This document shows positions 1 to 15,145 of a stretch of 15,145 nt of DNA, one piece after another (within the stretch, counting starts at the first letter, position 1; every line of letters begins with the position of its first letter). Source of the DNA: a virus (taxonomy: Duplodnaviria; Heunggongvirae; Uroviricota; Caudoviricetes); the IMG/VR virus record IMGVR_UViG_2617270941_000006; one strand, 5' to 3'. The notes beneath the pieces are model-generated. The model searched no databases and was not told where the DNA came from. It saw only the letters and a list, made by a program, of their open reading frames with translations. Both the position numbers and the translations under genes were made by a program.

Positions 1-1362
1 ATGTTTAAACCGGAACTCCTTTCCCCGGCGGGAACGCTGAAAAATATGCGTTACGCTTTCGCTTATGGCGCAGATGCTGTTTATGCGGGCCAGCCGCGTT
101 ATTCCCTGCGTGTGCGCAACAACGAATTCAACCACGAAAATCTTCAGCTCGGCATCAATGAAGCCCACGCGCTGGGGAAAAAGTTTTATGTCGTGGTCAA
201 CATTGCACCGCACAACGCCAAGCTGAAAACCTTTATCCGTGACCTGAAACCGGTGGTGGAAATGGGGCCGGATGCGCTGATTATGTCCGATCCAGGGCTG
301 ATTATGCTGGTGCGTGAGCACTTCCCTGAAATGCCGATCCACCTTTCGGTGCAGGCTAACGCCGTGAACTGGGCGACGGTGAAATTCTGGCAGCAAATGG
401 GCCTGACCCGCGTGATCCTCTCTCGCGAGCTGTCGCTGGAAGAGATTGAAGAGATCCGCAATCAGGTGCCGGATATGGAGATCGAGATCTTCGTTCACGG
501 CGCGCTGTGCATGGCCTACTCCGGTCGCTGCCTGCTCTCTGGCTATATCAACAAGCGCGACCCGAACCAGGGCACCTGCACCAACGCCTGCCGCTGGGAG
601 TACAACGTCCAGGAAGGGAAAGAAGATGATGTTGGCAACATCGTACACAAGTACGAGCCGATTCCGGTGCAAAATGTTGAGCCGACGCTGGGTATCGGCG
701 CACCAACCGACAAAGTGTTTATGATCGAAGAGGCCCAGCGTCCGGGCGAGTATATGACCGCGTTTGAAGATGAGCACGGCACTTACATCATGAACTCGAA
801 AGATCTGCGCGCCATCGCCCATGTAGAACGCCTGACCAAAATGGGCGTGCATTCGCTGAAAATCGAAGGTCGTACCAAATCTTTCTACTATTGTGCACGC
901 ACCGCACAGGTTTACCGCAAAGCTATCGATGACGCCGCTGCGGGAAAACCGTTCGATACCAGCCTGCTGGAAACTCTGGAAGGTCTGGCGCATCGTGGCT
1001 ATACCGAAGGTTTCCTGCGTCGTCATACTCACGACGATTATCAGAACTACGAATACGGTTATTCAGTTTCTGACCGCCAGCAGTTTGTTGGTGAGTTTAC
1101 CGGTGAGCGCAAGGGGGACCTCGCGGCGGTAGCGGTGAAAAATAAATTCTCCGTTGGCGACAGCCTTGAGCTGATGACGCCGCAAGGCAACATTAATTTT
1201 ACCCTTGAGCACATGGAAAACGCCAAAGGCGAAGCTATGCCGATAGCACCAGGCGATGGTTATACTGTGTGGCTCCCGGTCCCGCAGGATCTTGAGCTCA
1301 ATTACGCGCTGCTGATGCGTAATTTCTCCGGGGAAACCACGCGTAATCCCCACGGTAAGTGA
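1..1362 (+). CDS. yegQ: Peptidase U32-family protein YegQ (also called TrhP, tRNA U34 hydroxylation), complete 453 aa
   Basis: ORF track 1..1362, ATG at window position 1 and TGA at 1360-1362. The protein begins MFKPELLSPAGTLKNMRYAFAYGADAVYAGQPRYSLRVRNNEF, which I recognise as E. coli YegQ at its known 453-aa length. The cyaR sRNA gene follows downstream, as at the native E. coli locus. Confidence 0.9.
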   Translation: MFKPELLSPAGTLKNMRYAFAYGADAVYAGQPRYSLRVRNNEFNHENLQLGINEAHALGKKFYVVVNIAPHNAKLKTFIRDLKPVVEMGPDALIMSDPGLIMLVREHFPEMPIHLSVQANAVNWATVKFWQQMGLTRVILSRELSLEEIEEIRNQVPDMEIEIFVHGALCMAYSGRCLLSGYINKRDPNQGTCTNACRWEYNVQEGKEDDVGNIVHKYEPIPVQNVEPTLGIGAPTDKVFMIEEAQRPGEYMTAFEDEHGTYIMNSKDLRAIAHVERLTKMGVHSLKIEGRTKSFYYCARTAQVYRKAIDDAAAGKPFDTSLLETLEGLAHRGYTEGFLRRHTHDDYQNYEYGYSVSDRQQFVGEFTGERKGDLAAVAVKNKFSVGDSLELMTPQGNINFTLEHMENAKGEAMPIAPGDGYTVWLPVPQDLELNYALLMRNFSGETTRNPHGK

Positions 1363-1396: not shown

Positions 1397-1446
1397 TTAG
1401 AAACCGATCACATACAGCTGCATTTATTAAGGTTATCATCCGTTTC
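1397..1446 (+). promoter_or_regulatory. Putative cyaR promoter: imperfect CRP half-site pair (TCACA at about 1408-1412, centred near -42) and a -10-like TATCAT at about 1434-1439
   Basis: Sequence ttagaaaccgatcacat upstream of the cyaR 5' end; the TCACA half-site is good and the upstream half is degenerate. CyaR is known to be cAMP-CRP activated with a class II type site. Positions are read by eye. Confidence 0.4.
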
Positions 1447-1533
1447 GCTGAAAAACATAACCCATAAAATGCTAGCTGTACCAGGAACCACCTCCTTAGC
1501 CTGTGTAATCTCCCTTACACGGGCTTATTTTTT
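1447..1533 (+). ncRNA. cyaR: CyaR (RyeE) Hfq-dependent small RNA
   Basis: The stretch gctgaaaaacataacccataaaatgctagctgtaccaggaaccacctccttagcctgtgtaatctcccttacacgggcttatttttt matches my recollection of E. coli CyaR. It ends in a stem-loop (cctgtgtaa / ttacacggg) followed by a U-run, and sits between yegQ and P2-derived genes as in E. coli K-12. Confidence 0.8.
1507..1533. other. P2-type attachment-site core (prophage/host junction), coinciding with the 3' terminator of cyaR
   Basis: aatctcccttacacgggcttatttttt is the reverse complement of the 27-nt P2 att core as I recall it (AAAAAATAAGCCCGTGTAAGGGAGATT). It lies about 100 nt from the ogr stop, the distance expected between ogr and attP in P2. 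The core sequence is from memory and not verified. Confidence 0.55.
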
Positions 1534-1597
1534 ACGTACAACAAATTGAAATAAAAGGATTTATTTCTGGTCACGTCCACACATTGACCACATCGAC

Positions 1598-1631
1598 AAA
1601 AAAAGCCCCTCGACTGAGGGGCTTTCTGTTT
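1598..1631 (-). terminator. Rho-independent terminator downstream of ogr (structurally bidirectional)
   Basis: GC-rich hairpin gcccctc-gact-gaggggc flanked by a 7-A run on the plus side (7 U on the minus-strand transcript) and tttctgttt on the other side. It lies immediately 3' of the ogr stop at 1636-1638. Confidence 0.7.
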
Positions 1632-1635
1632 GTAA

Positions 1636-2043
1636 TTACATCCACATAATTTGCTGCCCTGACGGCAACGGGTGCGGCCTTACGGCGTGGACTTCTCCCG
1701 GCTTCACGATGTATCTCTGTACCGACTCATAGGTGATGAACGTGGCGCTGCAATTCACGTTCTGACACTGGTGATAACGCTCTTTTGTCGTGTCAGTGAT
1801 ATAGCGGCTTGTACGCGCATGTGCGGCATGCTGGCATACCGTGAGTGCACTGGTTTCGGGTTCATATTCAATCACCGCCCCGTCAGGGAAACGGATATGC
1901 AGGGCATCCTCCGACGCAGACGGCGCGGGGTTATCACCGGAATAAATCCCCGGCAGAACGAACGCCGTGTCGAGTTCACCGCCCACGGCCAGAATCAGCA
2001 CCTGCTCCCCCAGCCGGTCTTCAAAACGCTTAAACTCATTCAT
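1636..2043 (-). CDS. ogr: In-frame fusion ORF: N-terminal 69 aa of tail-completion protein S joined to Ogr residues 7-72 (late-gene activator lacking its first 6 residues including Cys4)
   Basis: ORF track 1636..2043 (135 aa). The C-terminal 66 aa (CQHAAHARTSRYITDTTKERYHQCQNVNCSATFITYESVQRYIVKPGEVHAVRPHPLPSGQQIMWM) match P2 Ogr from residue 7 on. The N-terminal MNEFKRFEDRL... starts 2 nt past the R stop, where gene S starts in P2. Junction at about 1836/1837. Confidence 0.7.
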   Translation of the reverse strand: MNEFKRFEDRLGEQVLILAVGGELDTAFVLPGIYSGDNPAPSASEDALHIRFPDGAVIEYEPETSALTVCQHAAHARTSRYITDTTKERYHQCQNVNCSATFITYESVQRYIVKPGEVHAVRPHPLPSGQQIMWM

Positions 2044-2503
2044 CCCACTTGCTCACCAGTTCGCCATTGATATAAAGCTCCATCGGGCGGGTGACCGGCT
2101 CCGGCGGCGGGGGTTCCGGGATATTCTTCACATGCAGCGCGCCGTCCACCTCACTGACCAGCGTGCGCTCGGTCAGCATCAGGCTGATGCTGATATCAAA
2201 GCTGCTGTCATTGTTGATGTCTGCATAAAACGTGAAGCCCTTTTTCTGGCCTGCGTCGGTGGTCATGATGTCGGGCTGATTCTCCCGCAGCCACGCCAGC
2301 ACCGGCACGATGAGCAGGTCAAAATCACCGGTAAAGTCGGTCACAATGACATTGAGCGTGTAACGCTTTTCGAATGACAGCGACGTCGCCAGTGTGGAGG
2401 CAATACTCCCGTTATCCACGAATATCCGCAGCATATCGGGGTTAGTTTTCAGTACCGTGACGGCATCAGTCAGCGCCCTGCGCAGGCTGTCGGGTTTGAG
2501 CAT
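2036..2503 (-). CDS. R: P2 gpR-like tail completion protein R (155 aa)
   Basis: ORF track 2036..2503. The protein MLKPDSLRRALTDAVTVLKTNPDMLRIFVDNGS... matches my recollection of P2 gpR, with the same length and position between lysB and S. Confidence 0.85.
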   Translation of the reverse strand: MLKPDSLRRALTDAVTVLKTNPDMLRIFVDNGSIASTLATSLSFEKRYTLNVIVTDFTGDFDLLIVPVLAWLRENQPDIMTTDAGQKKGFTFYADINNDSSFDISISLMLTERTLVSEVDGALHVKNIPEPPPPEPVTRPMELYINGELVSKWDE

Positions 2504-2756
2504 CGTTTTCGTCCTGACAGTGTTTAATCATTTTTACCTGGCTGGCACAGCGCGCCAGCGCGTTCTCAAGCTGCCGGATATCGGCACTTAAATCGCCGTT
2601 CGTCTGCGGGTCACTGCCCGGCATCGGGCAAAGGCTCACTTTCGGGCAGGCGTTGTGGACAATCACTGGCGTCGGTGCAGGCGGGGCGCTGGTGCAACCG
2701 GCGCACAGCATCAGGCAGGTCAGCGCCGTACCAGCGGCGAAAATCTTCGTTTTCAT
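2466..2756 (-). CDS. lysC: LysC-like o-spanin lipoprotein (Rz1 equivalent), embedded out of frame in lysB
   Basis: Internal Met at residue 40 of ORF 2466..2873 gives MKTKIFAAGTALTCLMLCAGCTS..., a signal peptide with lipobox (LCAGC) followed by a Pro-rich segment. It is nested in the +1 frame of the i-spanin gene, the typical Rz/Rz1 arrangement. 96 aa. Confidence 0.7.
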   Translation of the reverse strand: MKTKIFAAGTALTCLMLCAGCTSAPPAPTPVIVHNACPKVSLCPMPGSDPQTNGDLSADIRQLENALARCASQVKMIKHCQDENDAQTRQPAQGAD

Positions 2757-3036
2757 TGAGTAACCTCGTGATGGTTTTCTCGCGCTGTGCTTCACGCTTC
2801 GCGGCGTTCTCCAGTTCCTGACGCAGTGCCACCTGCGCCAGCTCGTTTTTGTCTGCCCTGGTGAGTGCAACATGAAGCTGGTTTTTCAGCATGGTGATGG
2901 TCGTCTGCTGCCCGCTGGCGACGTTGCTCGCCCTGTCCAGTGAGGTGCGCAGGCTGGCGTTTTCATGCTTCGCCAGAAACAGACCGGCCACCGCCAGTGA
3001 TAACAACACAACCAGCACAATCATCAGCTTTGACAT
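2611..3036 (-). CDS. lysB: LysB-like i-spanin (Rz equivalent), 141 aa
   Basis: ORF track 2611..3036. N-terminal transmembrane segment (MSKLMIVLVVLLSLAVAGLFLA) followed by a charged coiled-coil-like region. Length and position match P2 LysB. Confidence 0.85.
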   Translation of the reverse strand: MSKLMIVLVVLLSLAVAGLFLAKHENASLRTSLDRASNVASGQQTTITMLKNQLHVALTRADKNELAQVALRQELENAAKREAQREKTITRLLNENEDFRRWYGADLPDAVRRLHQRPACTDASDCPQRLPESEPLPDAGQ

Positions 3037-3449
3037 GGTTCCCGCACCTCAAAACGCTGACGGCAGGCCGTACGTATCAGCCGGAAGAACACCGATACCA
3101 CGAGATAAATCAGCGCGGTAAAAATCCACCCGGCAGCGACCAGCGAGATAAACGTCGCCACCATCACTACCAGAGCCACCGCCCGTCTGCGCCACGGCAC
3201 CGGCTGCAAAAACAGCGACGTGACAATCTTCACGGCCAGCGATTCCGGCGGCAGCTCCCGCCCGTAGCGTTCCAGTACATACTCTGTGGCATACACGCCG
3301 ACACCGCCGGCAACCACACAGATAACCGTCGCCAGAATCGCCCAGGCGGCGACAAAATTGACGGCCACGCTCTGCGGGTAAATCAGGGACAGTGCCAGCA
3401 TCAGCGCCAGCGACACGTTCAGCATCAGTGAAAGGGATAATTTCTTCAT
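3024..3449 (-). CDS. lysA: LysA-like membrane protein (lysis timing / holin-associated), 141 aa
   Basis: Starts at the internal ATG at residue 35 of ORF 3024..3551 (MKKLSLSLMLNVSLALMLALSLIYPQ...). The protein is highly hydrophobic with multiple transmembrane segments, and this start gives the P2 LysA length of 141 aa. The 3551 TTG start is treated as an artefactual extension. Confidence 0.75.
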   Translation of the reverse strand: MKKLSLSLMLNVSLALMLALSLIYPQSVAVNFVAAWAILATVICVVAGGVGVYATEYVLERYGRELPPESLAVKIVTSLFLQPVPWRRRAVALVVMVATFISLVAAGWIFTALIYLVVSVFFRLIRTACRQRFEVREPCQS

Positions 3450-3465
3450 GGTGTTTACTCCGTTT

Positions 3466-3561
3466 TGCGGCGAACACGGTCTCAACCACGCCCTCAGTGC
3501 GCCCGTAATACCGGACACAGATAGCGTCGAGCGTGTCGCCCTGTAGCGCAAAGGTCTTCAT
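3466..3561 (-). pseudogene. X: Truncated gpX (tail protein X) stub: first about 32 codons only, reading through out of frame into lysA
   Basis: ORF 3049..3630 contains MKTFALQGDTLDAICVRYYGRTEGVVETVFAA, matching the N-terminus of P2 gpX, starting at an ATG that overlaps the L stop (tcat at about 3558-3561). After about 32 residues the frame continues into lysA sequence in the wrong frame. The genes expected between X and lysA (Y holin, K endolysin) are absent. Confidence 0.6.
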
Positions 3562-4070
3562 CAGATTTGACTCACGATGCAGCGCGGCTTGTCCTGGATG
3601 CGCGCCACTGCCCAGCGCATATCCCGCCACAGCTCATCAATGGTGCTGTCAATGCTGTCGGCCTTCTTGTCGCCTTTCGCACTGGCATCCACGCCGCGAT
3701 AACGCTCATAAAGCGATGCGGTCGCCATCGCACACACGGCGCGCTCGTAGTAAAAAACTTTGATGCTTTCACCGTCGATGTCGTCCGCCGGGACGTCCGC
3801 CAGACGCGTAAAACCGGCAGCAATTTTCTGTTTGCGGTACTCGTACAGCTCCGCATTCGTCTCCGCCATGCCTGACTTGATGGCCTCACGCAGACGGGCG
3901 GGGGCGACGGTCTGCTCAAGGCGCATACGTTCCCGGACGCGCTTCGGGTCGATATCGGGAAAAAAGAACGTGTTTTTAATCACCGGCTCGTCGCCTGCCG
4001 GTTGCGGGATGACCACCGTACCCTCACCGGACACGGGAGCCTCCTTTCGCGGAATAATCAGCGTCATCAT
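3561..4070 (-). CDS. L: P2 gpL-like head completion/stabilisation protein (169 aa)
   Basis: Starts at Met 21 of ORF 3561..4130 (MMTLIIPRKEAPVSGEGTVVIPQPAGDEPVIKNTFFFPDIDPKRV...), which matches P2 gpL. There is a GAGG Shine-Dalgarno about 5 nt upstream and the length is 169 aa. Confidence 0.85.
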   Translation of the reverse strand: MMTLIIPRKEAPVSGEGTVVIPQPAGDEPVIKNTFFFPDIDPKRVRERMRLEQTVAPARLREAIKSGMAETNAELYEYRKQKIAAGFTRLADVPADDIDGESIKVFYYERAVCAMATASLYERYRGVDASAKGDKKADSIDSTIDELWRDMRWAVARIQDKPRCIVSQI

Positions 4071-4169
4071 GACTACCTCTGAAAAGTCGGGCGGTGGACG
4101 CCGGTACAGCGTCAGGTGATTCACCCTCACTGACCGGCGTGCCGCCCTGGCGCGGGGCGCATTCGGTTG

Positions 4170-4913
4170 TTAACTGGCTTTCTTTTTCGGGCGTCCACGT
4201 TTTGCCGGTGTCACGCTCCGGCTCTTACGCGGGGTACGGGTGGCCGCTTTGGGCTGCGGCTCCGGCTTCGGTTTCAGCTCCCGCTCCAGTCGTTCAATCT
4301 CTTTTTTGACACCTGCCTGACAGTCGAGCTGTGTCGCACGTTGCAGGTGAGCCAGCGCACCGGCGGCATCACCACCATCACGCAGAAACAGACCTGTGAT
4401 TTTGTGCAGCTTTGCGCGCACTTCATCAGGCATGTCAGCCGTGGCGGTCAGTTCAAGGGTCTCCGTCAGCAGGCGGGTATCCACAGACTCACCGGCAGCG
4501 TGAGCACGCATGGCCGCGAGCGCCACCTCCTCGGTGAACATGTACGGCGGGGTGCGGCGGTGTTTACCCGGCATGGTCAGACCGTACTTCAGGGCATAAC
4601 GGGCAATCTCCAGCGCACCGGCAATATCGCCGGTATCCAGACGCCACAGCATGACCGTCATCAGAATGTCATCCTGTGCACCTTTGCCCTGCTCCAGCAC
4701 GCCGTTCACCCACGGCAACCAGAACGGCAGCAGTTCGCGTTTTTTCGCGGCCTTCAGCTCTTTTGAATAAATCGCTTTCAGTGTGCGCTGGTCTGCGGCG
4801 AGCTTAACCAGCATCTGCTCATAGACAGTTGCATGTCGCAGCGGGGCGGCTTCCCGCTGCGCGGTCATCGCTGCCGAGACCCGCATCATGTGGCGCTGTG
4901 CGGGACTCGTCAT
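4170..4913 (-). CDS. M: P2 gpM-like terminase small (endonuclease) subunit, 247 aa
   Basis: ORF track 4170..4913. The sequence MTSPAQRHMMRVSAAMTAQREAAPLRHATVYEQMLVKLAADQRTLKAIYS... matches recalled P2 gpM, with a basic Lys/Arg/Pro-rich C-terminal tail. Length 247 aa as in P2. Confidence 0.9.
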   Translation of the reverse strand: MTSPAQRHMMRVSAAMTAQREAAPLRHATVYEQMLVKLAADQRTLKAIYSKELKAAKKRELLPFWLPWVNGVLEQGKGAQDDILMTVMLWRLDTGDIAGALEIARYALKYGLTMPGKHRRTPPYMFTEEVALAAMRAHAAGESVDTRLLTETLELTATADMPDEVRAKLHKITGLFLRDGGDAAGALAHLQRATQLDCQAGVKKEIERLERELKPKPEPQPKAATRTPRKSRSVTPAKRGRPKKKAS

Positions 4914-4916
4914 CGG

Positions 4917-5990
4917 TTACGCTCCCGGCTCTGCGGTCGCTTTAGCCAGTGTGGAGAAATCACCGACCTTAATTTTTTCCACCAGACAACCGGCGGCGTA
5001 GTCTTCCACCACGTAATCAATGTTCATTGACTCGTAGTTCTCCACGCGGTCGAGTTTCGGGTTTTCCTCAATCACGCGGCGATGGCTGTCATCCATGTAG
5101 TAGATGGACAGGTTTTCCAGCTTCGTGATGAGCATCGCATCCGCCGGGAAGTACGGGACGCGTACCGCTGGCAGGTTACCGATGCGTTTCTGGCTGATGA
5201 TGACGTCAGCGGCCAGCATTTCGCTGTTGTCCTGCTCCTTGTTAACGATGGGGAAATACTTGTCCGCCAGTAACTGACGTCCCACTATCACCACAAGGTC
5301 AGGGTCTTCCTGATACCACGGTTCGATCAGGTTGTTGGTCGCATCCATCACCAGTGCATCAAGGCTGGCATAATCACCGCCCTTACCCACACGGATGACC
5401 TCAGAGGTCGTGTGACCTTCCTCGTCAGTGACCTTGCTCATCACGCGCGCCGGTGCTTCATTGCGGTATTTCTGCAGCCAGCCGACCGCCACATCCTGCA
5501 ACATCGGATTACTGTTGCGGTCAGAGGTTTCGGCACGCTTCACGCCGTTAAAACCGGCCATGATGAAATCAAGGGACTGGCGTTTGATAATGGCGTTACG
5601 GATACGGAGCTGGAAATCCTGATAACGCGCCCACAGGTCAAGCGTTTTGTAGCGGATATAAAAATCGAAGTTAACCTGGTCGCATTCGTACTTGTTTGAC
5701 GCCAGCTTCGAGAAGTCCTTCGGCTGACGCTCGGTGCCACCGGCGGTGTCGGTGGTGCTGGCGATGGAGCCGGTGACACCGATACCAATTTTTTCCCCTT
5801 TCATTTCGCTGACCGGCACAATGTTGATGCGGGTCAGAAAGTCAGAGGACTCCTGCATGGTGTTCATCAGGGTCTGGGTGACCGACGGTTCAACGGTGAA
5901 TTTTTTCGACACATCACCGGCGTCGATGCCGTTCAGTTCGGCAACACGGGACAGGTAGGCATTAAATTTAAAGCGGGTTTCCTGGCGCAT
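4917..5990 (-). CDS. N: P2 gpN-like major capsid protein, 357 aa
   Basis: ORF track 4917..5990. MRQETRFKFNAYLSRVAELNGIDAGDVSKKFTVEPSVTQTLMNTMQESSDFLTRINIV... matches recalled P2 gpN. Length 357 aa as in P2, positioned between O and M. Confidence 0.9.
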   Translation of the reverse strand: MRQETRFKFNAYLSRVAELNGIDAGDVSKKFTVEPSVTQTLMNTMQESSDFLTRINIVPVSEMKGEKIGIGVTGSIASTTDTAGGTERQPKDFSKLASNKYECDQVNFDFYIRYKTLDLWARYQDFQLRIRNAIIKRQSLDFIMAGFNGVKRAETSDRNSNPMLQDVAVGWLQKYRNEAPARVMSKVTDEEGHTTSEVIRVGKGGDYASLDALVMDATNNLIEPWYQEDPDLVVIVGRQLLADKYFPIVNKEQDNSEMLAADVIISQKRIGNLPAVRVPYFPADAMLITKLENLSIYYMDDSHRRVIEENPKLDRVENYESMNIDYVVEDYAAGCLVEKIKVGDFSTLAKATAEPGA

Positions 5991-6048
5991 AGTTTTTCCT
6001 GAAATTAAGGGTTAATCGTGAAGGTTTTCCCGGACTGGCTGACGCCGG

Positions 6049-6903
6049 TCAGCAGTTCGTCATCAGGGCGTCACCGCCACCGCCGGTGGCCTTGCTGCGG
6101 CGCTGCTGGGTCAGACTTTCGGTGTGGTCGAGACTGTTTTTCAGGCGGGTGAATGCCTGGCTGGTTTCATCCGCCCTGTCTGTCACCTCCTGCTTAAGTG
6201 CGGAAAAGGCGGTTTCCATCTCAGCGAGGCGCTGCTCAGTGGCGCTCAGTTTTTCCTGCACATGTTCAGCAACAGCGGTCACCGCTTCATGCACGTCATT
6301 CAGACGGGCGTCATCGCTGGCCTGTTTGCGGCCAAAAATGGATTTCACCTTTTCGGTCAGGGCGGTGAACACGGTTTCAGGCAGGTCTTCAAATTCCAGC
6401 TCAACAGGCGTTGCCACTGAAATCAGGTTTTCAGGGCTTAATTTGAAGCGGTTCAGGGGGTTGTGTTTTGCCGTGCGGCAGAATTCCAGGTATTCCGTGC
6501 CGAGGCTTGCCGGGTCATCGGTGACGGCCAGACCCACCAGATAACATTTGCCGGTATTGGCAAAGTTCGGCTGAATTTCCATTGAGGTATAGACCTTCTG
6601 CGCGGCCTTGTTCATCGCGATAAGGTCATCGGTCGGGGTGATTTTCGCAAACAGCGCCCATTTGCCTTTCAGCGCCGAATCATCGTCAATCTTTTCGGCC
6701 TTCAGTTCGGCCACATCGCCATAACGCTTAAAAATACCGTCAGGCAGGATGCCGCGCAGATGTTCCAGGTTAATGCGGCAACCATAGACTCGCGGGTCAA
6801 AGGTTTCGGCCATTTCCTGAATATCCTGCGCACTGATGACACGCCCGTCACAGGTGTCACCCTCAACGCCGATACGAAAGAATTTTGAGACTTTTTTTGC
6901 CAT
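6049..6903 (-). CDS. O: P2 gpO-like capsid scaffolding protein, 284 aa
   Basis: Starts at Met 23 of ORF 6049..6969 (MAKKVSKFFRIGVEGDTCDGRVISAQDIQEMAETFDPRVYGCRINLEHLRG...), giving the P2 gpO length of 284 aa. The cat at 6901-6903 is the ATG on the minus strand. Confidence 0.9.
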   Translation of the reverse strand: MAKKVSKFFRIGVEGDTCDGRVISAQDIQEMAETFDPRVYGCRINLEHLRGILPDGIFKRYGDVAELKAEKIDDDSALKGKWALFAKITPTDDLIAMNKAAQKVYTSMEIQPNFANTGKCYLVGLAVTDDPASLGTEYLEFCRTAKHNPLNRFKLSPENLISVATPVELEFEDLPETVFTALTEKVKSIFGRKQASDDARLNDVHEAVTAVAEHVQEKLSATEQRLAEMETAFSALKQEVTDRADETSQAFTRLKNSLDHTESLTQQRRSKATGGGGDALMTNC

Positions 6904-7076
6904 TGTCAGGAGTCCTGAATAGTGATTAGAGGAGTCACATGTCGGCATCAGTTTCCCGACGATGCGCATCCTCCGCCATCAGTCCCGGATGGCTTATCAC
7001 TGACACAACAGCACCTTAGCGAATCGCGGGGCGCGACTCAGTAGCCTTGCCGTGTATTCATCACGGCGAGGTATTC
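6904..7076. promoter_or_regulatory. Divergent late-promoter region between O (leftward) and P (rightward), expected site of Ogr-dependent promoters
   Basis: A 173-nt intergenic region between divergent late operons, as in P2 where PO and PP are activated by Ogr. GAGG Shine-Dalgarno at about 7065-7068 before the P start. I could not find a perfect TGT-N12-ACA element, so exact promoter positions are not assigned. Confidence 0.4.
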
Positions 7077-8849
7077 ATGACCATCACCACAGACACCACT
7101 CTTTTACACGACCCGCGTCGTCAGGCGGCGCTGCTGTACTGGCAGGGATTTTCCGTGCCGCAGATTGCCGCCATGTTGCAGATGAAACGCCCGACGGTGC
7201 AGAGCTGGAAACAGCGCGACGGCTGGGACAGCGTTGCCCCCATCAGCCGTGTCGAAATGAGTCTGGAAGCGAGGCTGACCCAGCTCATCATCAAACCGCA
7301 GAAAACCGGCGGTGACTTCAAGGAAATTGACCTGCTCGGACGCCAGATTGAACGACTGGCACGGGTCAACCGTTACAGTCAGACCGGCAACGAGGCAGAC
7401 CTTAATCCGAACGTCGCTAACCGCAACAAGGGCGGGCGTCGCAAACCGAAAAAGAATTTTTTCAGTGACGAGGCCATCGAAAAGCTGGAGCAGATTTTCT
7501 TTGAGCAGTCTTTCGAATATCAGTTGCACTGGTATCGCGCCGGGCTTGAGCACCGCATCCGCGATATCCTGAAATCCCGCCAGATTGGCGCGACGTTTTA
7601 TTTTTCCCGCGAGGCGCTGCTGCGCGCCCTGAAAACCGGTCATAACCAGATTTTTCTGTCGGCCAGTAAAACGCAGGCGTATGTGTTCCGCGAATACATC
7701 ATCGCCTTTGCCCGGTTGGTTGACGTTGACCTGACCGGTGACCCAATTGTCCTGGGCAATAACGGCGCAAAACTGATTTTTCTCGGCACCAACTCCAACA
7801 CCGCGCAGAGCCATAACGGCGACCTGTACGTCGACGAGATTTTCTGGATCCCGAATTTTCAGGTGCTCCGTAAGGTGGCATCAGGTATGGCCTCACAGAG
7901 CCACCTGCGCTCGACCTATTTCTCCACCCCGTCCACGCTGGCGCACGACGCCTACCCGTTCTGGTCGGGTGAACTGTTCAACCGGGGACGCGCCAGCGCC
8001 GCCGAACGCGTGGAAATCGACGTCAGTCATAACGCCCTTGCCGGAGGTCTTCTCTGTGCGGACGGCCAGTGGCGGCAGATTGTCACCATTGAGGACGCCC
8101 TGAAAGGCGGCTGCACGCTGTTCGACATTGAGCAGCTCAAACGCGAAAACAGCGCCGACGATTTTAAAAACCTGTTCATGTGTGAATTTGTTGACGACAA
8201 GGCATCGGTGTTCCCGTTCGAGGAGCTGCAACGCTGCATGGTCGACACGCTGGAAGAATGGGAAGACTATGCGCCGTTTGCCGCCAATCCGTTCGGCTCC
8301 CGCCCGGTATGGATTGGTTACGACCCGTCACACCGTGGCGACAGCGCCGGATGCGTGGTGCTGGCACCGCCGGTGGTGGCCGGTGGAAAATTCAGAATAC
8401 TTGAGCGTCACCAGTGGAAAGGCATGGACTTTGCCACTCAGGCTGAATCCATCCGCAAACTCACCGAAAAATACAACGTCGAATACATCGGTATTGATGC
8501 CACCGGCCTCGGTGTCGGCGTGTTCCAGCTCGTGCGCTCGTTCTATCCCGCCGCGCGCGATATCCGCTACACACCGGAAATGAAAACTGCAATGGTGCTC
8601 AAGGCAAAAGACGTTATCCGCCGTGGCTGTCTGGAATATGACGTCAGCGCCACCGACATCACCAGCTCGTTCATGGCTATCCGCAAGACCATGACCAGCA
8701 GCGGACGCAGCGCCACGTATGAGGCCAGCCGCAGCGAGGAAGCCAGCCACGCCGACCTCGCCTGGGCGACCATGCATGCCCTGTTAAATGAGCCACTCAC
8801 CGCCGGTATCAGCACCCCGCTGACATCCACCATTCTGGAGTTTTACTGA
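7077..8849 (+). CDS. P: P2 gpP-like terminase large (ATPase) subunit, 590 aa
   Basis: Starts at Met 11 of ORF 7047..8849 (MTITTDTTLLHDPRRQAALLYWQGFSVPQIAAMLQMKRPTVQSWKQRDGWDS...), which matches recalled P2 gpP. The TTG at 7047 is treated as an extension. The stop overlaps the Q start (tgatga). Confidence 0.9.
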   Translation: MTITTDTTLLHDPRRQAALLYWQGFSVPQIAAMLQMKRPTVQSWKQRDGWDSVAPISRVEMSLEARLTQLIIKPQKTGGDFKEIDLLGRQIERLARVNRYSQTGNEADLNPNVANRNKGGRRKPKKNFFSDEAIEKLEQIFFEQSFEYQLHWYRAGLEHRIRDILKSRQIGATFYFSREALLRALKTGHNQIFLSASKTQAYVFREYIIAFARLVDVDLTGDPIVLGNNGAKLIFLGTNSNTAQSHNGDLYVDEIFWIPNFQVLRKVASGMASQSHLRSTYFSTPSTLAHDAYPFWSGELFNRGRASAAERVEIDVSHNALAGGLLCADGQWRQIVTIEDALKGGCTLFDIEQLKRENSADDFKNLFMCEFVDDKASVFPFEELQRCMVDTLEEWEDYAPFAANPFGSRPVWIGYDPSHRGDSAGCVVLAPPVVAGGKFRILERHQWKGMDFATQAESIRKLTEKYNVEYIGIDATGLGVGVFQLVRSFYPAARDIRYTPEMKTAMVLKAKDVIRRGCLEYDVSATDITSSFMAIRKTMTSSGRSATYEASRSEEASHADLAWATMHALLNEPLTAGISTPLTSTILEFY

Positions 8850-9467
8850 TGAGCAAGAAAAAAGGGAAAACACCGCAACCTGCGGCAAAAACAATCACCG
8901 CCAGCGCCCCGAAAATGGAGGCATTCACCTTTGGTGAGCCGGTGCCGGTACGGCCTGCCGGAATATCTCAGCGCCCTTAATTCTGCCTGGCTGAATGAGT
9001 CGGCCACGCTGTTCCGCCGCAAGTATTACGAAAACGGCGCTCATGCCGGATATATCATGTACGTCACCGATGCCGTGCAGGATCGCAACGATATCGAAAT
9101 GCTTCGCGAAAACATGGTCAAGTCGAAAGGCCGCAACAACTTTAAAAATCTGTTTCTCTATGCCCCGCAGGGGAAAGCCGACGGCATTAAAATTATCCCG
9201 CTCAGTGAAGTGGCAACGAAGGACGATTTTTTTAATATCAAAAAAGCCAGCGCCGCTGACCTGCTGGACGCACACCGCATCCCCTTTCAGTTGATGGGCG
9301 GCAAGCCGGAGAACGTCGGGTCACTGGGAGATATTGAGAAAGTGGCAAAGGTCTTTGTCCGCAATGAGCTTATCCCGTTACAGGACAGGATCCGCGAGAT
9401 AAACGGCTGGCTCGGTCAGGAGGTCATCCGCTTTAAAAACTACTCACTGGACACTGACAACGGCTGA
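8849..9467 (+). pseudogene. Q: Portal gene Q disrupted by an internal out-of-frame deletion (N-terminal 34 codons, then C-terminal about 172 codons in another frame)
   Basis: ATG at 8849-8851 overlapping the P stop gives MSKKKGKTPQPAAKTITASAPKMEAFTFGEPVPV, then RPAGISQRP and a stop at 8978-8980. The portal C-terminal sequence (YGLPEYLSALNSAWLNESATLFRRKYYENGAHAGYIMYV...DTDNG) is in ORF 8931..9467 in a different frame. The total span is about 206 codons against 344 aa for P2 Q. Junction near 8948-8951. Confidence 0.8.
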
Positions 9468-9472
9468 ACATC

Positions 9473-9494
9473 GCCGCCTGCGGGCGGCTTTTTT
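9473..9494 (+). terminator. Rho-independent terminator after Q
   Basis: Hairpin gccgcc-tgcg-ggcggc followed by tttttt, beginning 6 nt after the Q stop. Confidence 0.65.
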
Positions 9495-9636
9495 ACACCC
9501 CGTCATCACGCCCTCACACGCTCACCACCGCACAAAACACCCCGCAGACACACCAATGCCCCGGCTAACAATCTAAACGCCATCACGACGCGCTCAGACG
9601 CTGAAAAAATAAAATCAGCACCACCGCCAGCGCGCA

Positions 9637-9655
9637 GTGCTTTCCCCGCCTCGCC
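9637..9655. other. P2-type cos site (19-nt cohesive end sequence)
   Basis: gtgctttccccgcctcgcc is the reverse complement of the P2 cohesive end GGCGAGGCGGGGAAAGCAC as I recall it. It lies about 170 nt beyond the end of Q, as expected for the P2 genome end. Sequence from memory, not verified. Confidence 0.6.
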
Positions 9656-9772
9656 CGCCCGCTTAATGGGGCGGTTTTAATGCGGGTGCATAACCACTTC
9701 TTACCCACATCAATTCTGGTCAAGCCAAGCAGTACAGCTTATGATTTCAAGATGCAAACTCATGCAGCAATG

Positions 9773-10966
9773 TTAAATTCTGCATCCATCGGTTTGAAAA
9801 TGTGATCCGTTTTTCGAATTCAAACTCAACTCTGTTTGACTCTTTTGAACATTAATAGTTTTACCAGTAAGGACATCCAAAACCCCTGCAGCAACAGCCT
9901 GCGCCAATTTACAAGGCACAGCATTCCCTATCTGACGCCAAATTGACGAATTTTTCCCCACAAAGACATAATTACTCGGGAATGTTTGAATCAAAAGAGC
10001 CTCATCTATCGTTAGTCGACGTAAACGACTAGGTACATCGTGCATATCTTTTGGCTCACCACCATTCATTAGATGATTATGATAAGTCTCAACATAACTT
10101 GTTGAGCCATCATAAAGGTGTTCTTCATCAATAATTGGTGTCCTATTCCCTCCCATAGAAGCAGCTATAGTTGAAGCATACCCATTCGGGTTAATTGGTC
10201 TTCCCTGCCCGTTAAACATCATTCCCGCGTAAGGTGACTTCCGTAATACTGGCTTAGCAGCATTTGTAATCCTTGCATTACAGACTCTTGAATTGTTTGG
10301 ATTACCCGCTCGCCCTAAAGGCCGAATAATCTCACCAACTGTGGGCGAAAGATATTGGTATTTTTTTATCGCCGCCTCAACTCGTTTCACATCATTTTCG
10401 GAACGAAACCCTATAAAAAACATACGTTCCCTATTCTGAGGAACGCCAAAATCTTTAGAATTCAGCACCAGCAAGGCTGAACGATAGCCTGACTTTTCAG
10501 CCATCTTAAACAGTTCACACCTAACTGGTTCAAATTTGGACAACTGTGCTAAAGCCTTAACATTCTCCATAACAAAGCATTCTGGTTGAATTATATCCAC
10601 CGCCCGCATGAATGACATAACCAGCTTACTACGTGGATCATGAGCGTCCATTTTCCCTGCCACAGAAAATCCTTGGCATGGAGGCCCACCAAAAACACAA
10701 CCTATATTTTTCAGCCCAGACAATTCACTTAGCATCTCATCAATATCACCACAAAAAACAGGTGATTCATGATTAAGCTTAAATGTATCACATGCATCCT
10801 TATCTATATCATTGGCCCAAACTGTTCGGAACCCGGCATTAGAGAAACCGACATCCATCCCTCCTGCCCCAGTAAATAAGCTCACCGCTGAAATTTTGTT
10901 CACTTCTTTAGCACCAATTATTCGATTTTGGAATAAAACCAATGATAGGTAAGGATCGACACACAA
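9773..10966 (-). CDS. DNA (cytosine-5)-methyltransferase, Type II R-M modification subunit (397 aa with the TTG start)
   Basis: ORF track 9773..10966. Conserved m5C-MTase motifs in canonical order: LFTGAGGMDVGF (motif I, AdoMet binding), GGPPCQGFS (motif IV, catalytic Cys), ENV (motif VI), QNRERMFFIG (motif VIII), a variable target-recognition region, and RQIGNAVP (motif X). The TTG start has an AAGGTGA Shine-Dalgarno 4 nt upstream; GTG starts 21 or 27 codons in are alternatives. The region is AT-rich compared with the phage backbone. Confidence 0.85.
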   Translation of the reverse strand: MCVDPYLSLVLFQNRIIGAKEVNKISAVSLFTGAGGMDVGFSNAGFRTVWANDIDKDACDTFKLNHESPVFCGDIDEMLSELSGLKNIGCVFGGPPCQGFSVAGKMDAHDPRSKLVMSFMRAVDIIQPECFVMENVKALAQLSKFEPVRCELFKMAEKSGYRSALLVLNSKDFGVPQNRERMFFIGFRSENDVKRVEAAIKKYQYLSPTVGEIIRPLGRAGNPNNSRVCNARITNAAKPVLRKSPYAGMMFNGQGRPINPNGYASTIAASMGGNRTPIIDEEHLYDGSTSYVETYHNHLMNGGEPKDMHDVPSRLRRLTIDEALLIQTFPSNYVFVGKNSSIWRQIGNAVPCKLAQAVAAGVLDVLTGKTINVQKSQTELSLNSKNGSHFQTDGCRI

Positions 10967-10986
10967 TCAATCACCTTCTAAACCAC

Positions 10987-11256
10987 ATGGCAAAACGACA
11001 ACCAACTATACATGATCATAGATACAGGTGCCTAGTCCAGCTTCTCACCAAACTACGCAAAGAAGCTTCTCTTTCGCAGTCAGAATTGGCCATTTTTCTA
11101 GGATTATCACAATCAGATATATCTAAAATCGAAAGCTTTGAAAGGCGATTAGATGCTTTAGAACTATTTGAATTATTAGAGGTGGTTGCAAGCCGATTAG
11201 GTCTACCAATGGATATCTTACTAAAGGACACCTATGAAAGTATTAGTAAATCATGA
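10987..11256 (+). CDS. XRE-family helix-turn-helix regulator, putative R-M controller (C) protein, 89 aa (104 aa if it starts at the ATG at 10942)
   Basis: Internal Met 16 of ORF 10942..11256. HTH segment LRKEASLSQSELAIFLGLSQSDISKIESFERRLDALELFELLEVVASRLGLPMD follows the pattern of R-M controller proteins. It is divergent from the methyltransferase and its 3' end overlaps the start of the downstream ORF by 23 nt (C-R operon architecture). Start codon choice is uncertain. Confidence 0.65.
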   Translation: MAKRQPTIHDHRYRCLVQLLTKLRKEASLSQSELAIFLGLSQSDISKIESFERRLDALELFELLEVVASRLGLPMDILLKDTYESISKS

Positions 11257-12289
11257 GCAAGCCTATAATGTAATTATAAATGCAATCAACGATGCAAAAA
11301 AATTAACTGATTACAAAACAAATAATCAATGGGTCTCCATTCAAAATGTAATTTTAGGCACCCACCTTACATACAGATATATACTTATTACTGGTTTACT
11401 TGCAAAAGCAACAGACCCTAGAGTAAACCCTCTTGCTTTACAAGCTAATGCCCCCGTAGACGGAGCCTATGATGCAAGAAGTTTATGTCATTCGGTAATA
11501 GTAGGCAAAGTAGAAGGCCCATTTTTAGAGGGTAAGTTAGGCGCATCAAATGAGCCATTTCTAAATAAACCTGCTCGTTACATGCTCCACTCCTCTGATA
11601 ACCCTGTGCGCAGAGGAAATGATAAGGTTTTACAACAACTTTCAATTGATATATTACATGCAGCAACAACCCAAACCTTAGCTTATGAAATGCTTGTTAT
11701 TGCATTATATTTTACCCTACAGCGAACCAATAGAGTTATAACGCCGAACTCAATTAATTTTGATTTCCATAAGATTATTTATAATATTATATCTCATCCT
11801 TGTGATGGAGAAACATGCGCGATTGCTGCCGCAATTTCGTTACATTTATTAGGTGAACAAAGAGGATGGATAATAAAAGCACATCCCGTCAATCAGGCCG
11901 GTAGCTCCTCAAAAGAGATACTGGACATAGATGTATATCATGACGATATAGTTTTCCTTTCTATAGAAGTGAAAGACAAACCATTTAATTATCAAGATGT
12001 TAATCACGCCGTTTCAAAAGCATCTGCATCCGGGATTTCAAAAGTTATCTTCCTTAAAGGGCCAAGAGCAACAAACTTAGATATTGATGAGTCTCTTGCG
12101 ATTGAGAACGCTGCGACAAAAGGTGTTTCACTAAGCTTTAGTGACGTCATGACATTCACAACAACATGTTATGCGTTATCGCCACTATTAAGTAATGACA
12201 GAATAATAGATTTCATAAATAACACTTTAAAAGACATCAGAGCTAAAGATAGCACTATAGAATACATACAATCCATATTTAAAAATTAA
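11234..12289 (+). CDS. Putative Type II restriction endonuclease (351 aa), family unassigned
   Basis: ORF track 11234..12289. ATG preceded by AAAGGA Shine-Dalgarno at 11223-11228, translationally coupled to the HTH gene. Candidate PD-(D/E)xK-like motif around residues 231-247 (LDIDVYHDDIVFLSIEVK, about nt 11924-11974). Function is inferred from genomic context with the m5C-MTase and controller; the ORF itself is solid, the product call is tentative. Confidence 0.55.
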   Translation: MKVLVNHEQAYNVIINAINDAKKLTDYKTNNQWVSIQNVILGTHLTYRYILITGLLAKATDPRVNPLALQANAPVDGAYDARSLCHSVIVGKVEGPFLEGKLGASNEPFLNKPARYMLHSSDNPVRRGNDKVLQQLSIDILHAATTQTLAYEMLVIALYFTLQRTNRVITPNSINFDFHKIIYNIISHPCDGETCAIAAAISLHLLGEQRGWIIKAHPVNQAGSSSKEILDIDVYHDDIVFLSIEVKDKPFNYQDVNHAVSKASASGISKVIFLKGPRATNLDIDESLAIENAATKGVSLSFSDVMTFTTTCYALSPLLSNDRIIDFINNTLKDIRAKDSTIEYIQSIFKN

Positions 12290-14653: not shown

Positions 14654-14918
14654 ATGAGCCAAAAGCCTCTGAACAACGCTTGCTGAGTTGCTCAACCTGC
14701 GCGTTTAAATCAGCAAAAGACTTTGCGCTTCCGGTCAGAATATCGTGATGCATCAGGCCGGAAACGAGCTGGCTTAATTTCGGGTAATAACCAACCACCG
14801 CCAGCCATTCCTGACCGGCGTTTTTACCGCTTTCCGCTCTCTTTTTCTCGTGGAGAATAAACTGAAAGCTGTCACTGGTAACGACATAACGTTCGCCAAT
14901 TTCGATACGAATACTCAT
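14643..14918 (-). CDS. P2 early-operon small protein immediately upstream of A (orf83-position homologue), 91 aa, function unknown
   Basis: ORF track 14643..14918. The ATG overlaps the stop of the upstream zinc-finger ORF (tcat at 14915-14918). It sits where the P2 early operon has small ORFs between B and A. The name is by position only. Confidence 0.55.
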   Translation of the reverse strand: MSIRIEIGERYVVTSDSFQFILHEKKRAESGKNAGQEWLAVVGYYPKLSQLVSGLMHHDILTGSAKSFADLNAQVEQLSKRCSEAFGSYGR

Positions 14919-15139
14919 GCCATTCTCCGGTAATGTTTGTTTTTTGCTTCAAAGACTGACTGACAGGAAACACAACGCGTGGCTGACGGATAAGCCGCAC
15001 GACGGGCAGCAGGTATTGGCGCGTCACACTCTTCGCAAACCAGCGCAGAAGCACCGCAATGTTTTACCCTTGCCGCGTTAATCTGGCGCTCCAGTAATTC
15101 AGCCTGTTGTTCCTGAATAAAATCTACGTTGTCCGGCAT
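14915..15139 (-). CDS. TraR/DksA-family C4 zinc-finger protein (P2 early-operon small ORF, orf82-like), 74 aa
   Basis: ORF track 14915..15139 with ATG at 15137-15139. Four cysteines in two CxxC pairs (HCGASALVCEECDAPIPAARRAAYPSATRCVSCQ), typical of phage TraR/DksA-like zinc fingers. Confidence 0.65.
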   Translation of the reverse strand: MPDNVDFIQEQQAELLERQINAARVKHCGASALVCEECDAPIPAARRAAYPSATRCVSCQSVFEAKNKHYRRMA

Positions 15140-15145
15140 TACCAG

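Follow-up and report, generated by a model that had tools for sequence, protein, structure and literature searches.

The window described here, a stretch of 15,145 nucleotides given as IMG/VR virus record IMGVR_UViG_2617270941_000006 (Caudoviricetes), carries, by its sequence, a P2-like prophage at locI, the yegQ–CyaR site of Escherichia coli, entered from the attR end on the minus strand. Read from attR inwards it is colinear with P2 (ogr, V, S to lysA, X to P, Q, cos, A and orf83–82). Near attR a minus-strand open reading frame (ORF) of 135 aa runs from ATG to stop at 1636–2043, exactly where a preliminary description of this DNA had placed it; that description regarded the ORF as an S-type N-terminus joined to the late activator Ogr by a single deletion. 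The window was compared by blastn with Yersinia phage L-413C and phage P2, and the ORF was resolved into the following parts (a caret marks the point of joining here and below):

2011–2043, minus strand: S', start codon and codons 1–11 of the tail completion gene S (11/11 gpS; blastn end at P2 8947)
2011–2012, minus strand: S11^V64 deletion joint, TG common to both parents
1837–2010, minus strand: 'V', internal piece of the baseplate spike gene V, codons 64–121 (blastn P2 10495–10673, L-413C 9623–9801)
1837–1838, minus strand: V121^ogr7 deletion joint, TA the sole common bases, product ...CACGGTA^TGCCAG...
1636–1836, minus strand: 'ogr, codons 7–72 and stop (66/66 P2 Ogr; blastn P2 24052–24382)

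On these alignments the ORF is almost certainly a triple chimera, S(1–11)–V(64–121)–Ogr(7–72), produced by two deletions. Residues 1–11 are identical to P2 gpS 1–11, residues 12–69 correspond to gpV 64–121 (55 of 58 amino acids identical) and residues 70–135 are identical to Ogr 7–72 throughout, while just 3 of the 19 residues from 12 to 30 match gpS. The preliminary description had recognized the Ogr part and had written the joint as it reads, ACG GTA^TGC CAG. Its 69-residue N-terminus from S shrinks to 11 residues, and the record is corrected here in that the ORF holds a V fragment. Nor does the ORF begin 2 nt past the R stop; its start codon, that of S, overlaps the end of R by 8 nt (ATGAATGA), the same as in P2. 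At the nucleotide level, window 1507–1838 equals P2 24382–24052 (attR, the terminator and ogr, starting at the second base of its codon 6), window 1834–2012 equals P2 10673–10495 (within V) and window 2011–3465 equals P2 8947–7493 (S codons 1–11, R, lysC, lysB and lysA). The alignment against P2 S and ogr that had been proposed as a check uncovered the second joint, S11^V64 at window 2011/2012, with the parental sequences GACCGGCTG^ACCGG on the left and CCTTCCGTG^GGGGA on the right. Both joints are in frame, for which the chance is one in nine. In public annotation the ORF appears as a baseplate protein or as a transcriptional regulator.

By Pfam, the Ogr_Delta domain (PF04606) lies at residues 70–112 of the fusion with 64.5 bits against a cut-off of 26.3; it covers profile positions 5–47 of 47, whereas intact P2 Ogr covers positions 1–47. 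The four-cysteine motif CX2CX22CX4C is incomplete, as the first Cys is absent, and the residues preceding Ogr Cys7 read SALTV, with neither Cys nor His. No Phage_tail_S domain (PF05069) was found by Pfam in the fusion, for which P2 gpS itself scores 150 bits. The V OB domain Phage_base_V (PF04717) is represented at residues 11–34 by its last 24 profile positions only (18.7 bits, below the cut-off of 23.8), and the V spike trimer domain PF18715, looked for with Pfam in comparison with intact V, was not found in the fusion. Compared with P2, 13.4 kb are lost, namely the C-terminal portion of V, all genes that follow it up to and including D, the ogr promoter and ogr codons 1–6; the region of ogr's own promoter and start (P2 23973–24051) is deleted. 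The loss of Ogr's promoter, start codon and Cys4 had thus been described correctly, and of the proposed loss of the tail block the absence of everything from the C-terminal part of V to D stands; the chimera came about by two deletions and not by one from S to ogr.

The V121^ogr7 deletion was probably the earlier of the two, because it is found elsewhere with S and the N-terminus of V intact. This first step (about 13.4 kb) would have taken the end of V, the genes from W to D, the ogr promoter and ogr codons 1–6; in a second step the S11^V64 deletion, of 0.67–1.5 kb depending on the ancestor, would have fused the start of S to the V fragment. A V121^ogr7 joint identical to that of the window is present in four further loci (L006–L009), with S intact in L008, as is R, and with an O'^'S joint in L006, L007 and L009. 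The 187-aa protein V(1–121)–Ogr(7–72) is encoded by 24 or more contigs, some with the prophage at yegQ and others with it on the pflB side; the group adjoining pflB has a different att core. The flanks of the V^ogr joint differ by 2–4% among lineages, which allows either recurrence or one old event. The exact 135-aa protein was found only in three NCBI assemblies (KDX66482, KDX74260 and KDX78999, all of the E. coli 2-222-05_S1_C1 series), and neither the S^V joint nor the whole arrangement occurs in any of 5,426 complete E. coli genomes. The window is 100% identical to a 105-kb contig of E. coli GCA_000704285.1 across 12,043 bases, which is all of it that the locus taken from this contig (L003) spans.

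Related fusions were collected from the fusion's 90%-identity cluster and by a homologue search, their partners were mapped to P2, and a subset was checked at the DNA level. At least 21 distinct upstream partners are joined to ogr at one nucleotide, ...xTA^TGC CAG (Ogr Cys7, P2 24052), seven of them with confirmation at the DNA level. The partners include V(1–121), Cox(1–39), Orf82(1–42) and FI(1–127), further FI, FII/E and E peptides, several antisense-P peptides, one antisense-Q peptide and short unplaced leaders. Thirteen were mapped on the P2 plus strand (352, 1263, 1502, 2117, 2652, 10670, 18032, 18133, 18735, 19404, 19528, 26121 and 27673), and the loci examined at the DNA level added two more, H-13346 and U-22717. 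The joints of V, FI, P-2117 and cox to ogr are simple deletions beside attR at the DNA level. None of the 120 best hits shows a fusion elsewhere between ogr codon 7 and about codon 18, despite three more TA dinucleotides in this interval.

The other side of the joint is reused in the same manner. For V codon 121 (CACGGTA^AGCGG, P2 10670), at least 12 different partners were found on the downstream side, among them sites in T, H/G, D, FI, I/J and W, compared with 4–5 fusions elsewhere in V; in two complete genomes it is joined to D-23485 and to H-13828, respectively. Three joints, each with another partner, involve the S site (8946/7), which forms the left end in one of them and the right end in the other two. 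Site 2117 likewise recurs in three joints, and sites 1502, 2652, 7493 and 18032 recur in two each. Of the four end points that gave rise to the chimera, three (ogr-24052, V-10670 and S-8946/7) thus belong to the recurrent breakpoints. Prophages with three unrelated att cores show breaks at these same sites, the cores being the P2 27-mer, AAAAAATGTCACCAATAACTGACATT (L008, L013) and the 47-bp core of W-phi/L-413C (L011). All of the 15 defective prophage loci are colinear with P2, and neither inversion nor strand switch was seen in them. As far as the mapped joints allow a judgement, the breakpoints are probably non-random and recurrent. The idea of a short-microhomology deletion, put forward in the preliminary description for the V^ogr joint, holds insofar as TA is common to both parents, but it is too simple, as both breakpoints recur with many partners. 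Deletion is the main bacterial route to disarm prophages and is usually seen as random; here, dozens of independent deletions reuse identical nucleotides. Literature searches returned no description of a deletion hot spot in ogr or V. As an independent DNA sample for ogr fusions, the pattern VTATGCCAGCATGCCGCACATGC had one match in IMG/VR and none in JGI metagenome contigs or GTDB species representatives.

The two loci beside pflB–focA (L008 and L013) deserve a separate remark. They carry P2-type arm sites, and their core AAAAAATGTCACCAATAACTGACATT is a perfect ATGTCA/TGACAT inverted repeat around CCAATAAC. This family shows the same ogr breakpoint with two partners, V-10670 and U-22717.

The ogr joints share just the dinucleotide TA, which is present in the P2 reference at 12 of the 13 mapped partners. 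In every case the left parent supplied the nucleotide 5' of TA and the right parent the one 3' of it; the exchange therefore took place within or at TA. Among joints not ascertained via ogr, TA lies at the crossover in 7 of 17, and among the first eight of these in four (P about 7e-4 against an expectation of 6%). Positional conservation, calculated as the sum over positions of the count of the commonest base, was higher for the ogr partners than in any of 5,000 randomly drawn sets of TA sites, and leave-one-out ranks with the partner matrix had a median of about 7%. A CGG or CCG lies at most 6 nt from TA in 14 of 23 used sites, compared with 17.6% of all TA sites, an enrichment seen in 0 of 20,000 random samples. 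In the pooled half-site C is found at position −4 in 57% (vs 24%) and G at −2 in 61%, giving C-S-G-N-TA and the dyad CSGN-TA-NCSG. This partner motif has no homology to the ogr site.

Within 1350–2700 of the window no sigma-70-like promoter was found, and the chimera can only be read from the Ogr-dependent late promoter PO, via O, N, M, L, X', lysA, lysB, lysC and R to the ogr terminator downstream. Its place as the tail end of the O operon had been anticipated, as had the dependence of the late genes on an activator in trans: because the activator site of the divergent promoters PO and PP is Ogr-dependent and intact (6983–7013), transcription would need the late activator from elsewhere. Activators of the Ogr/Delta family act on TGT-N12-ACA late promoters via RNA polymerase alpha. 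Ogr family proteins bind zinc through CX2CX22CX4C (PMC3931495). Residues 70–135 score above the gathering threshold of the Ogr/Delta/Pag/B family (PF04606), to which the chimera is thus alike; it differs from these proteins in the absence of the first Cys, of an own promoter and of an own start, and in its 69-aa foreign N-terminus. We infer that the fusion has probably lost its late-activator function, because the first zinc ligand is absent, an own promoter is missing and the gene sits behind the Ogr-dependent PO. Against this speaks that Cys4 might be replaced by another ligand. A superinfecting P2-like phage or a P4-type satellite could switch on the remaining late genes, yet neither particles nor lysis would be expected to follow, because tail, portal, holin and endolysin functions are gone. 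The chimera itself is ordinary prophage decay, a leftover that probably does nothing.

The recurrent breakpoints in many unrelated E. coli suggest a site-preferring deletion process. The joints would be created by conservative break-and-rejoin at preferred sites, most likely by an activity like that of a type IA topoisomerase, which would cleave a single strand and transfer it; once fixed by replication, the product of such a transfer would be expected to be a deletion in every case. An enzyme is favored because one inherited deletion cannot create new partners, because selection cannot yield single-nucleotide precision and because two bases cannot steer slippage to one site over 1–20 kb. On the strength of the joint sequences, the case for and against enzyme-mediated break-and-rejoin as the origin of these deletions seems to us evenly balanced, and that a type IA topoisomerase specifically would be responsible appears unlikely, though among the candidates it is the best lead. 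To our knowledge, the formation of deletions by a topoisomerase IA is not an established process in E. coli.

E. coli topoisomerase I requires in vivo a strict C at −4 and cleaves at TA, with the motif TCNTTA/T (PMC9352719). The ogr site, GTCCTTTA, contains two C residues that fit two registers; together with W-10524 (TTCCCTTTA) and cox-26046 (TTCCTTAT) it fits TCNTTA/T, and the enrichment of C at −4 in the pooled half-sites is a further likeness. C at −4, with the same break and strand in both partners, was found in 21 of 27 TA-type pairs compared with 22% at random, by a rule set post hoc. In contrast to the topoisomerase I motif, the partner sites are mostly GC-rich CSGN^TA, and the implied break is one base 5' of T^A. 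A second, T-rich class of break sites was noticed in the same set: the left site of the joint P2 26046^29235, a cox–A deletion (L014), reads TTCCTTAT^C and resembles ogr (GTCCTTTAT^G), W (TTCCCTTTA^C) and the bottom strand of the att core (CTCCCTTA^C), all four fitting TCNTTA/T.

In its broadest form the interpretation is a tentative one: it is possible that a dedicated, sequence-preferring break-and-rejoin, and not random illegitimate recombination, largely dismantles the P2-like prophages of E. coli. A few TA-centered sites would then be cut and rejoined in pairs, resulting in deletions only and independently of the integrase, and the chimera would reflect two rounds of this reaction; plausible agents would be a type IA topoisomerase of the host and a recombinase so far unrecognised. 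Our best explanation as a whole, the chimera together with site-preferring deletions, we consider reasonably probable. If the process is enzyme-driven, E. coli prophages are inactivated in part by a mechanism that is open to genetic tests. The breakpoints could mark independent domestication events, and the reaction could be an unnoticed source of genome rearrangement.

Several observations weigh against a site-preferring enzyme. The remaining joints not ascertained via ogr (about half) show ordinary microhomology of 3–13 nt, and several of the P values are post hoc. Recurrence was ascertained by protein searches seeded with the fusion, in which only open frames keeping Ogr 7–72 or V 64–121 are visible. 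In complete genomes, the right ends near ogr are scattered (23463, 23485, 23917, 24052 and 24161), and a break within P2 23852–24251 is present in at most 14 of 2,072 ogr-bearing complete genomes. The parental sequences are the P2 and L-413C references and not the true ancestors. With ogr or V held fixed, 42–45% of random TA partners meet the C-at-minus-4 rule, which was framed after the data and allows two registers and two strands, and the published register (CNTT^A), which agrees with the ogr site, does not suit the CSGN^TA partners, although these are more common.

These points lend weight to enzyme-independent illegitimate recombination by slippage or microhomology end joining, in which the hot spots would result from ascertainment, from local DNA structure or from old deletions spread by homologous recombination. 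This alternative, which we judge somewhat unlikely, is in line with the microhomology in about half of the other defective-P2 joints, with the occurrence of deletions only, as slippage predicts, with a detection skewed to in-frame fusions, and with the mosaic nature of P2-like phages and the divergence of the V^ogr flanks. It would nevertheless lead one to expect scattered end points, whereas the same nucleotides are reused, with at least 21 left partners at a single ogr nucleotide and at least 12 right partners at V121. An identity of 2 nt is too short for repeated slippage to one site over 1–20 kb, the other TA dinucleotides in ogr codons 7–19 are unused, and the partner motif lacks homology to the ogr site. 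Recombination by the P2 integrase, a tyrosine recombinase, between secondary core-like sites within the prophage is a further candidate: lambda Int generates att-anchored deletions, and in P2 lysogens int is co-transcribed with the repressor. The central TA of the att core (GTGTA^AGGGAGATT) ranks 49 among 2,992 TA sites with the ogr-partner matrix (top 1.6%), and several partner sites, like the ogr site when read in reverse, belong to the top 1% by identity to the core. In the productive orientation, however, the ogr site ranks only 1,507; the same hot sites serve prophages with three unrelated att cores, the parents have 2 nt in common where tyrosine recombinases require an overlap of 6–8 bp, the crossover falls inside any plausible overlap region, and many partner pairs have no nearby arm sites. 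An origin by P2 Int is accordingly improbable.

With respect to the chimera itself, the single microhomology deletion from the interior of S to ogr codon 7 accounts for the start and first 11 codons of S and for a frame that runs on into ogr; given that residues 12–69 match gpV and not gpS, that blastn places window 1834–2012 in V and that no Phage_tail_S domain was found, there is next to nothing left in its favor. Just as remote is an assembly artefact, in which the contig would mis-join repeats from two P2-like prophages with the tail genes present. The source contig does end within the prophage early region, as would be seen with a second related prophage, but the 2-nt identity at the joint is far below any assembler k-mer. 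The 12,043 bases identical to the 105-kb contig, the exact protein in three assemblies, the V121^ogr7 joint in at least 24 further contigs of other projects and analogous joints in complete genomes all argue against a mis-join, which the preliminary description had named as a way in which its claim could fail. A functional, selected protein is a further alternative, either as a truncated Ogr that acts as an RNA polymerase alpha-binding interferer with the late transcription of superinfecting P2- or P4-type elements or as an active activator. Ogr 7–72 is 100% conserved and stays open behind varied N-termini in many lineages, for example in a 77-aa form with a cluster of 121 member sequences. 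A protein search, though, reveals open frames only, so that this conservation equals ascertainment; the N-termini include antisense and out-of-frame peptides, an own promoter is missing, one of four zinc ligands is gone, and the exact form is private to one strain series. We regard a selected function as very improbable.

A number of other enzymes were considered as well. The nick site of the P2 gpA rolling-circle initiator at ori (GCGCCTCG^GAGTCC) is unlike the joints. For DNA gyrase or another type II topoisomerase with a 4-bp stagger, the whole 4-nt overhang is predicted to come from one parent, and such a stagger is ruled out by hybrid joints, e.g., GTAT from GTAA x TTAT. IS30, with its 2-bp target duplication and palindromic hot spots, leaves a copy at the joint, and none is present. 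Rpn/YhgA nucleases, reported to be without sequence specificity (PMC5350276), were rejected for that reason. XerCD, Din-family invertases, Tn3-type resolvases, IS630/IS5 targets, Chi sites and CRISPR-Cas3 showed no fit in a by-eye comparison with their consensus sequences. The pattern resembles the nested deletions made by lambda Int at att, beside insertion sequences (IS) and at rolling-circle nicks in that one end is fixed to the nucleotide and the other varies among preferred secondary sites. It differs from them in that ogr-24052 lies about 300 bp from the att core and not at the P2 ori nick, that no IS is left, and that several fixed points exist which recombine with each other.

The remaining features of the window are as follows:

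1–1362, plus strand: yegQ/trhP, host gene for a peptidase U32 family tRNA hydroxylase (Pfam Peptidase_U32; syntenic E. coli loci)
1445–1530, plus strand: CyaR (RyeE) small RNA (sRNA; Rfam RF00112, 100.7 bits, E=1.5e-19)
1498–1525: CyaR terminator hairpin (terminator scan)
1507–1533, minus strand: attR core, the 27-nt P2 core AAAAAATAAGCCCGTGTAAGGGAGATT (locI), an exact match inside the CyaR terminator
1602–1625, no strand assigned: rho-independent terminator hairpin of ogr and the F operon (terminator scan; equals P2 terminator 24265–24288)
2036–2503, minus strand: gene R (tail completion), intact (155-aa ORF; Pfam P2_Phage_GpR 3e-45)
3464–3465, minus strand: joint of X' with the region upstream of lysA (P2 6606^7493, AA common; blastn)
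6983–7013, minus strand: Ogr-dependent activator site of the divergent PO/PP late promoters, intact (exact match to P2 3057–3087)
8948–8951, plus strand: internal joint of the portal gene Q (P2 706^1119; GTAC common, with TA within), 412 bp lost, frameshift
9773–10966, minus strand: C5 cytosine methyltransferase
10987–11256, plus strand: small helix-turn-helix (HTH) protein
11234–12289, plus strand: SacI-type restriction endonuclease N-terminal domain protein

Beyond lysA, window 3464–8951 equals P2 6606–1119 (X', L, M, N, O, P and the end of Q) and window 8948–9655 equals P2 706–1. The deletion 6606^7493 takes the end of X, the holin gene Y and the endolysin gene K; the X' stub begins at 3561 and crosses lysA out of frame. 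Its right-hand site (CCGGCTTAA^ACGG; 7485–7493) is reused in the deletion 1047^7485 of E. coli WCHEC115106 (L011). Gene Q is broken into the ORFs 8849–8980 (43 aa) and 8931–9467 (178 aa). Together with the two joints of the chimera, microhomology is thus seen at all four joints of the prophage: TG (S^V), TA (V^ogr), AA (X^lysA) and GTAC (Q). Full-length frames are retained for L, M, N, O, P, R, lysA, lysB, lysC and A. On this comparison the prophage is inactivated by four clean deletions and not by point-mutation decay, and it would be dead even with Ogr supplied, because holin Y and endolysin K are absent and Q is frameshifted.

The att core coincides with the 3' half of the CyaR terminator hairpin, and integration therefore rebuilds the terminator of the sRNA from phage DNA. 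At the tin/old moron position between cos and gene A, a restriction-modification cassette is found (9773–12289). The prophage portion analyzed stops before B, cox, C, int and attL, as contig JNQM01000015 ends in the early region (orf82/orf81) near the end of the window (14915–15145). A second related prophage may be present in the same strain.

The window holds a defective P2 remnant at locI, which is of a known kind; the TA-centered deletion pattern is what was not found described. E. coli K-12 (ogrK and yegZ, a D fragment) and E. coli B carry their remnants at the same locI site, from yegQ/CyaR to yegR, in the same orientation; in both, the ogr end was kept beside attR and internal deletions took essential genes. 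Most ogr-bearing E. coli, including K-12 and B, have ogrK beside the D fragment at locI, and K-12 and REL606 match P2 23852–24251 in full. Their ogr, reported to be functional, is complete with 72 aa and its promoter, whereas the ogr of the window is truncated at codon 6 and attached to pieces of V and S; capsid and terminase genes, on the other hand, are still intact in the window. Defective P2-like prophages are also present in the complete genomes of E. coli 23CRST025, IAL7250, 410, WCHEC115106 and REL606 (L004, L005, L010, L011 and L012), with 2–7 clean internal deletions each and surviving genes 92–99% identical to P2 with open frames; the joints of the REL606 prophage are Q'^'S and FII'^'D. 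In such prophages deletion, and not point mutation, would commonly dominate decay.

Two minor observations concern V. Many V genes (P0044, P0052, P0061 and P0099; V near P2 10495) begin with MVGTFRGEQV, one cluster of this type comprising 289 member sequences. Such a start is consistent with the loss of one base in the G5 run at P2 10490–10500, a run that is the right end of the S^V joint of the window. A 232-aa protein of Yokenella regensburgei (P0026) joins the N-terminal part of V and a C-terminal fragment of D and runs into a complete Ogr (MFHCSKC...); V-to-D deletions beside ogr therefore occur outside E. coli too, at other positions.

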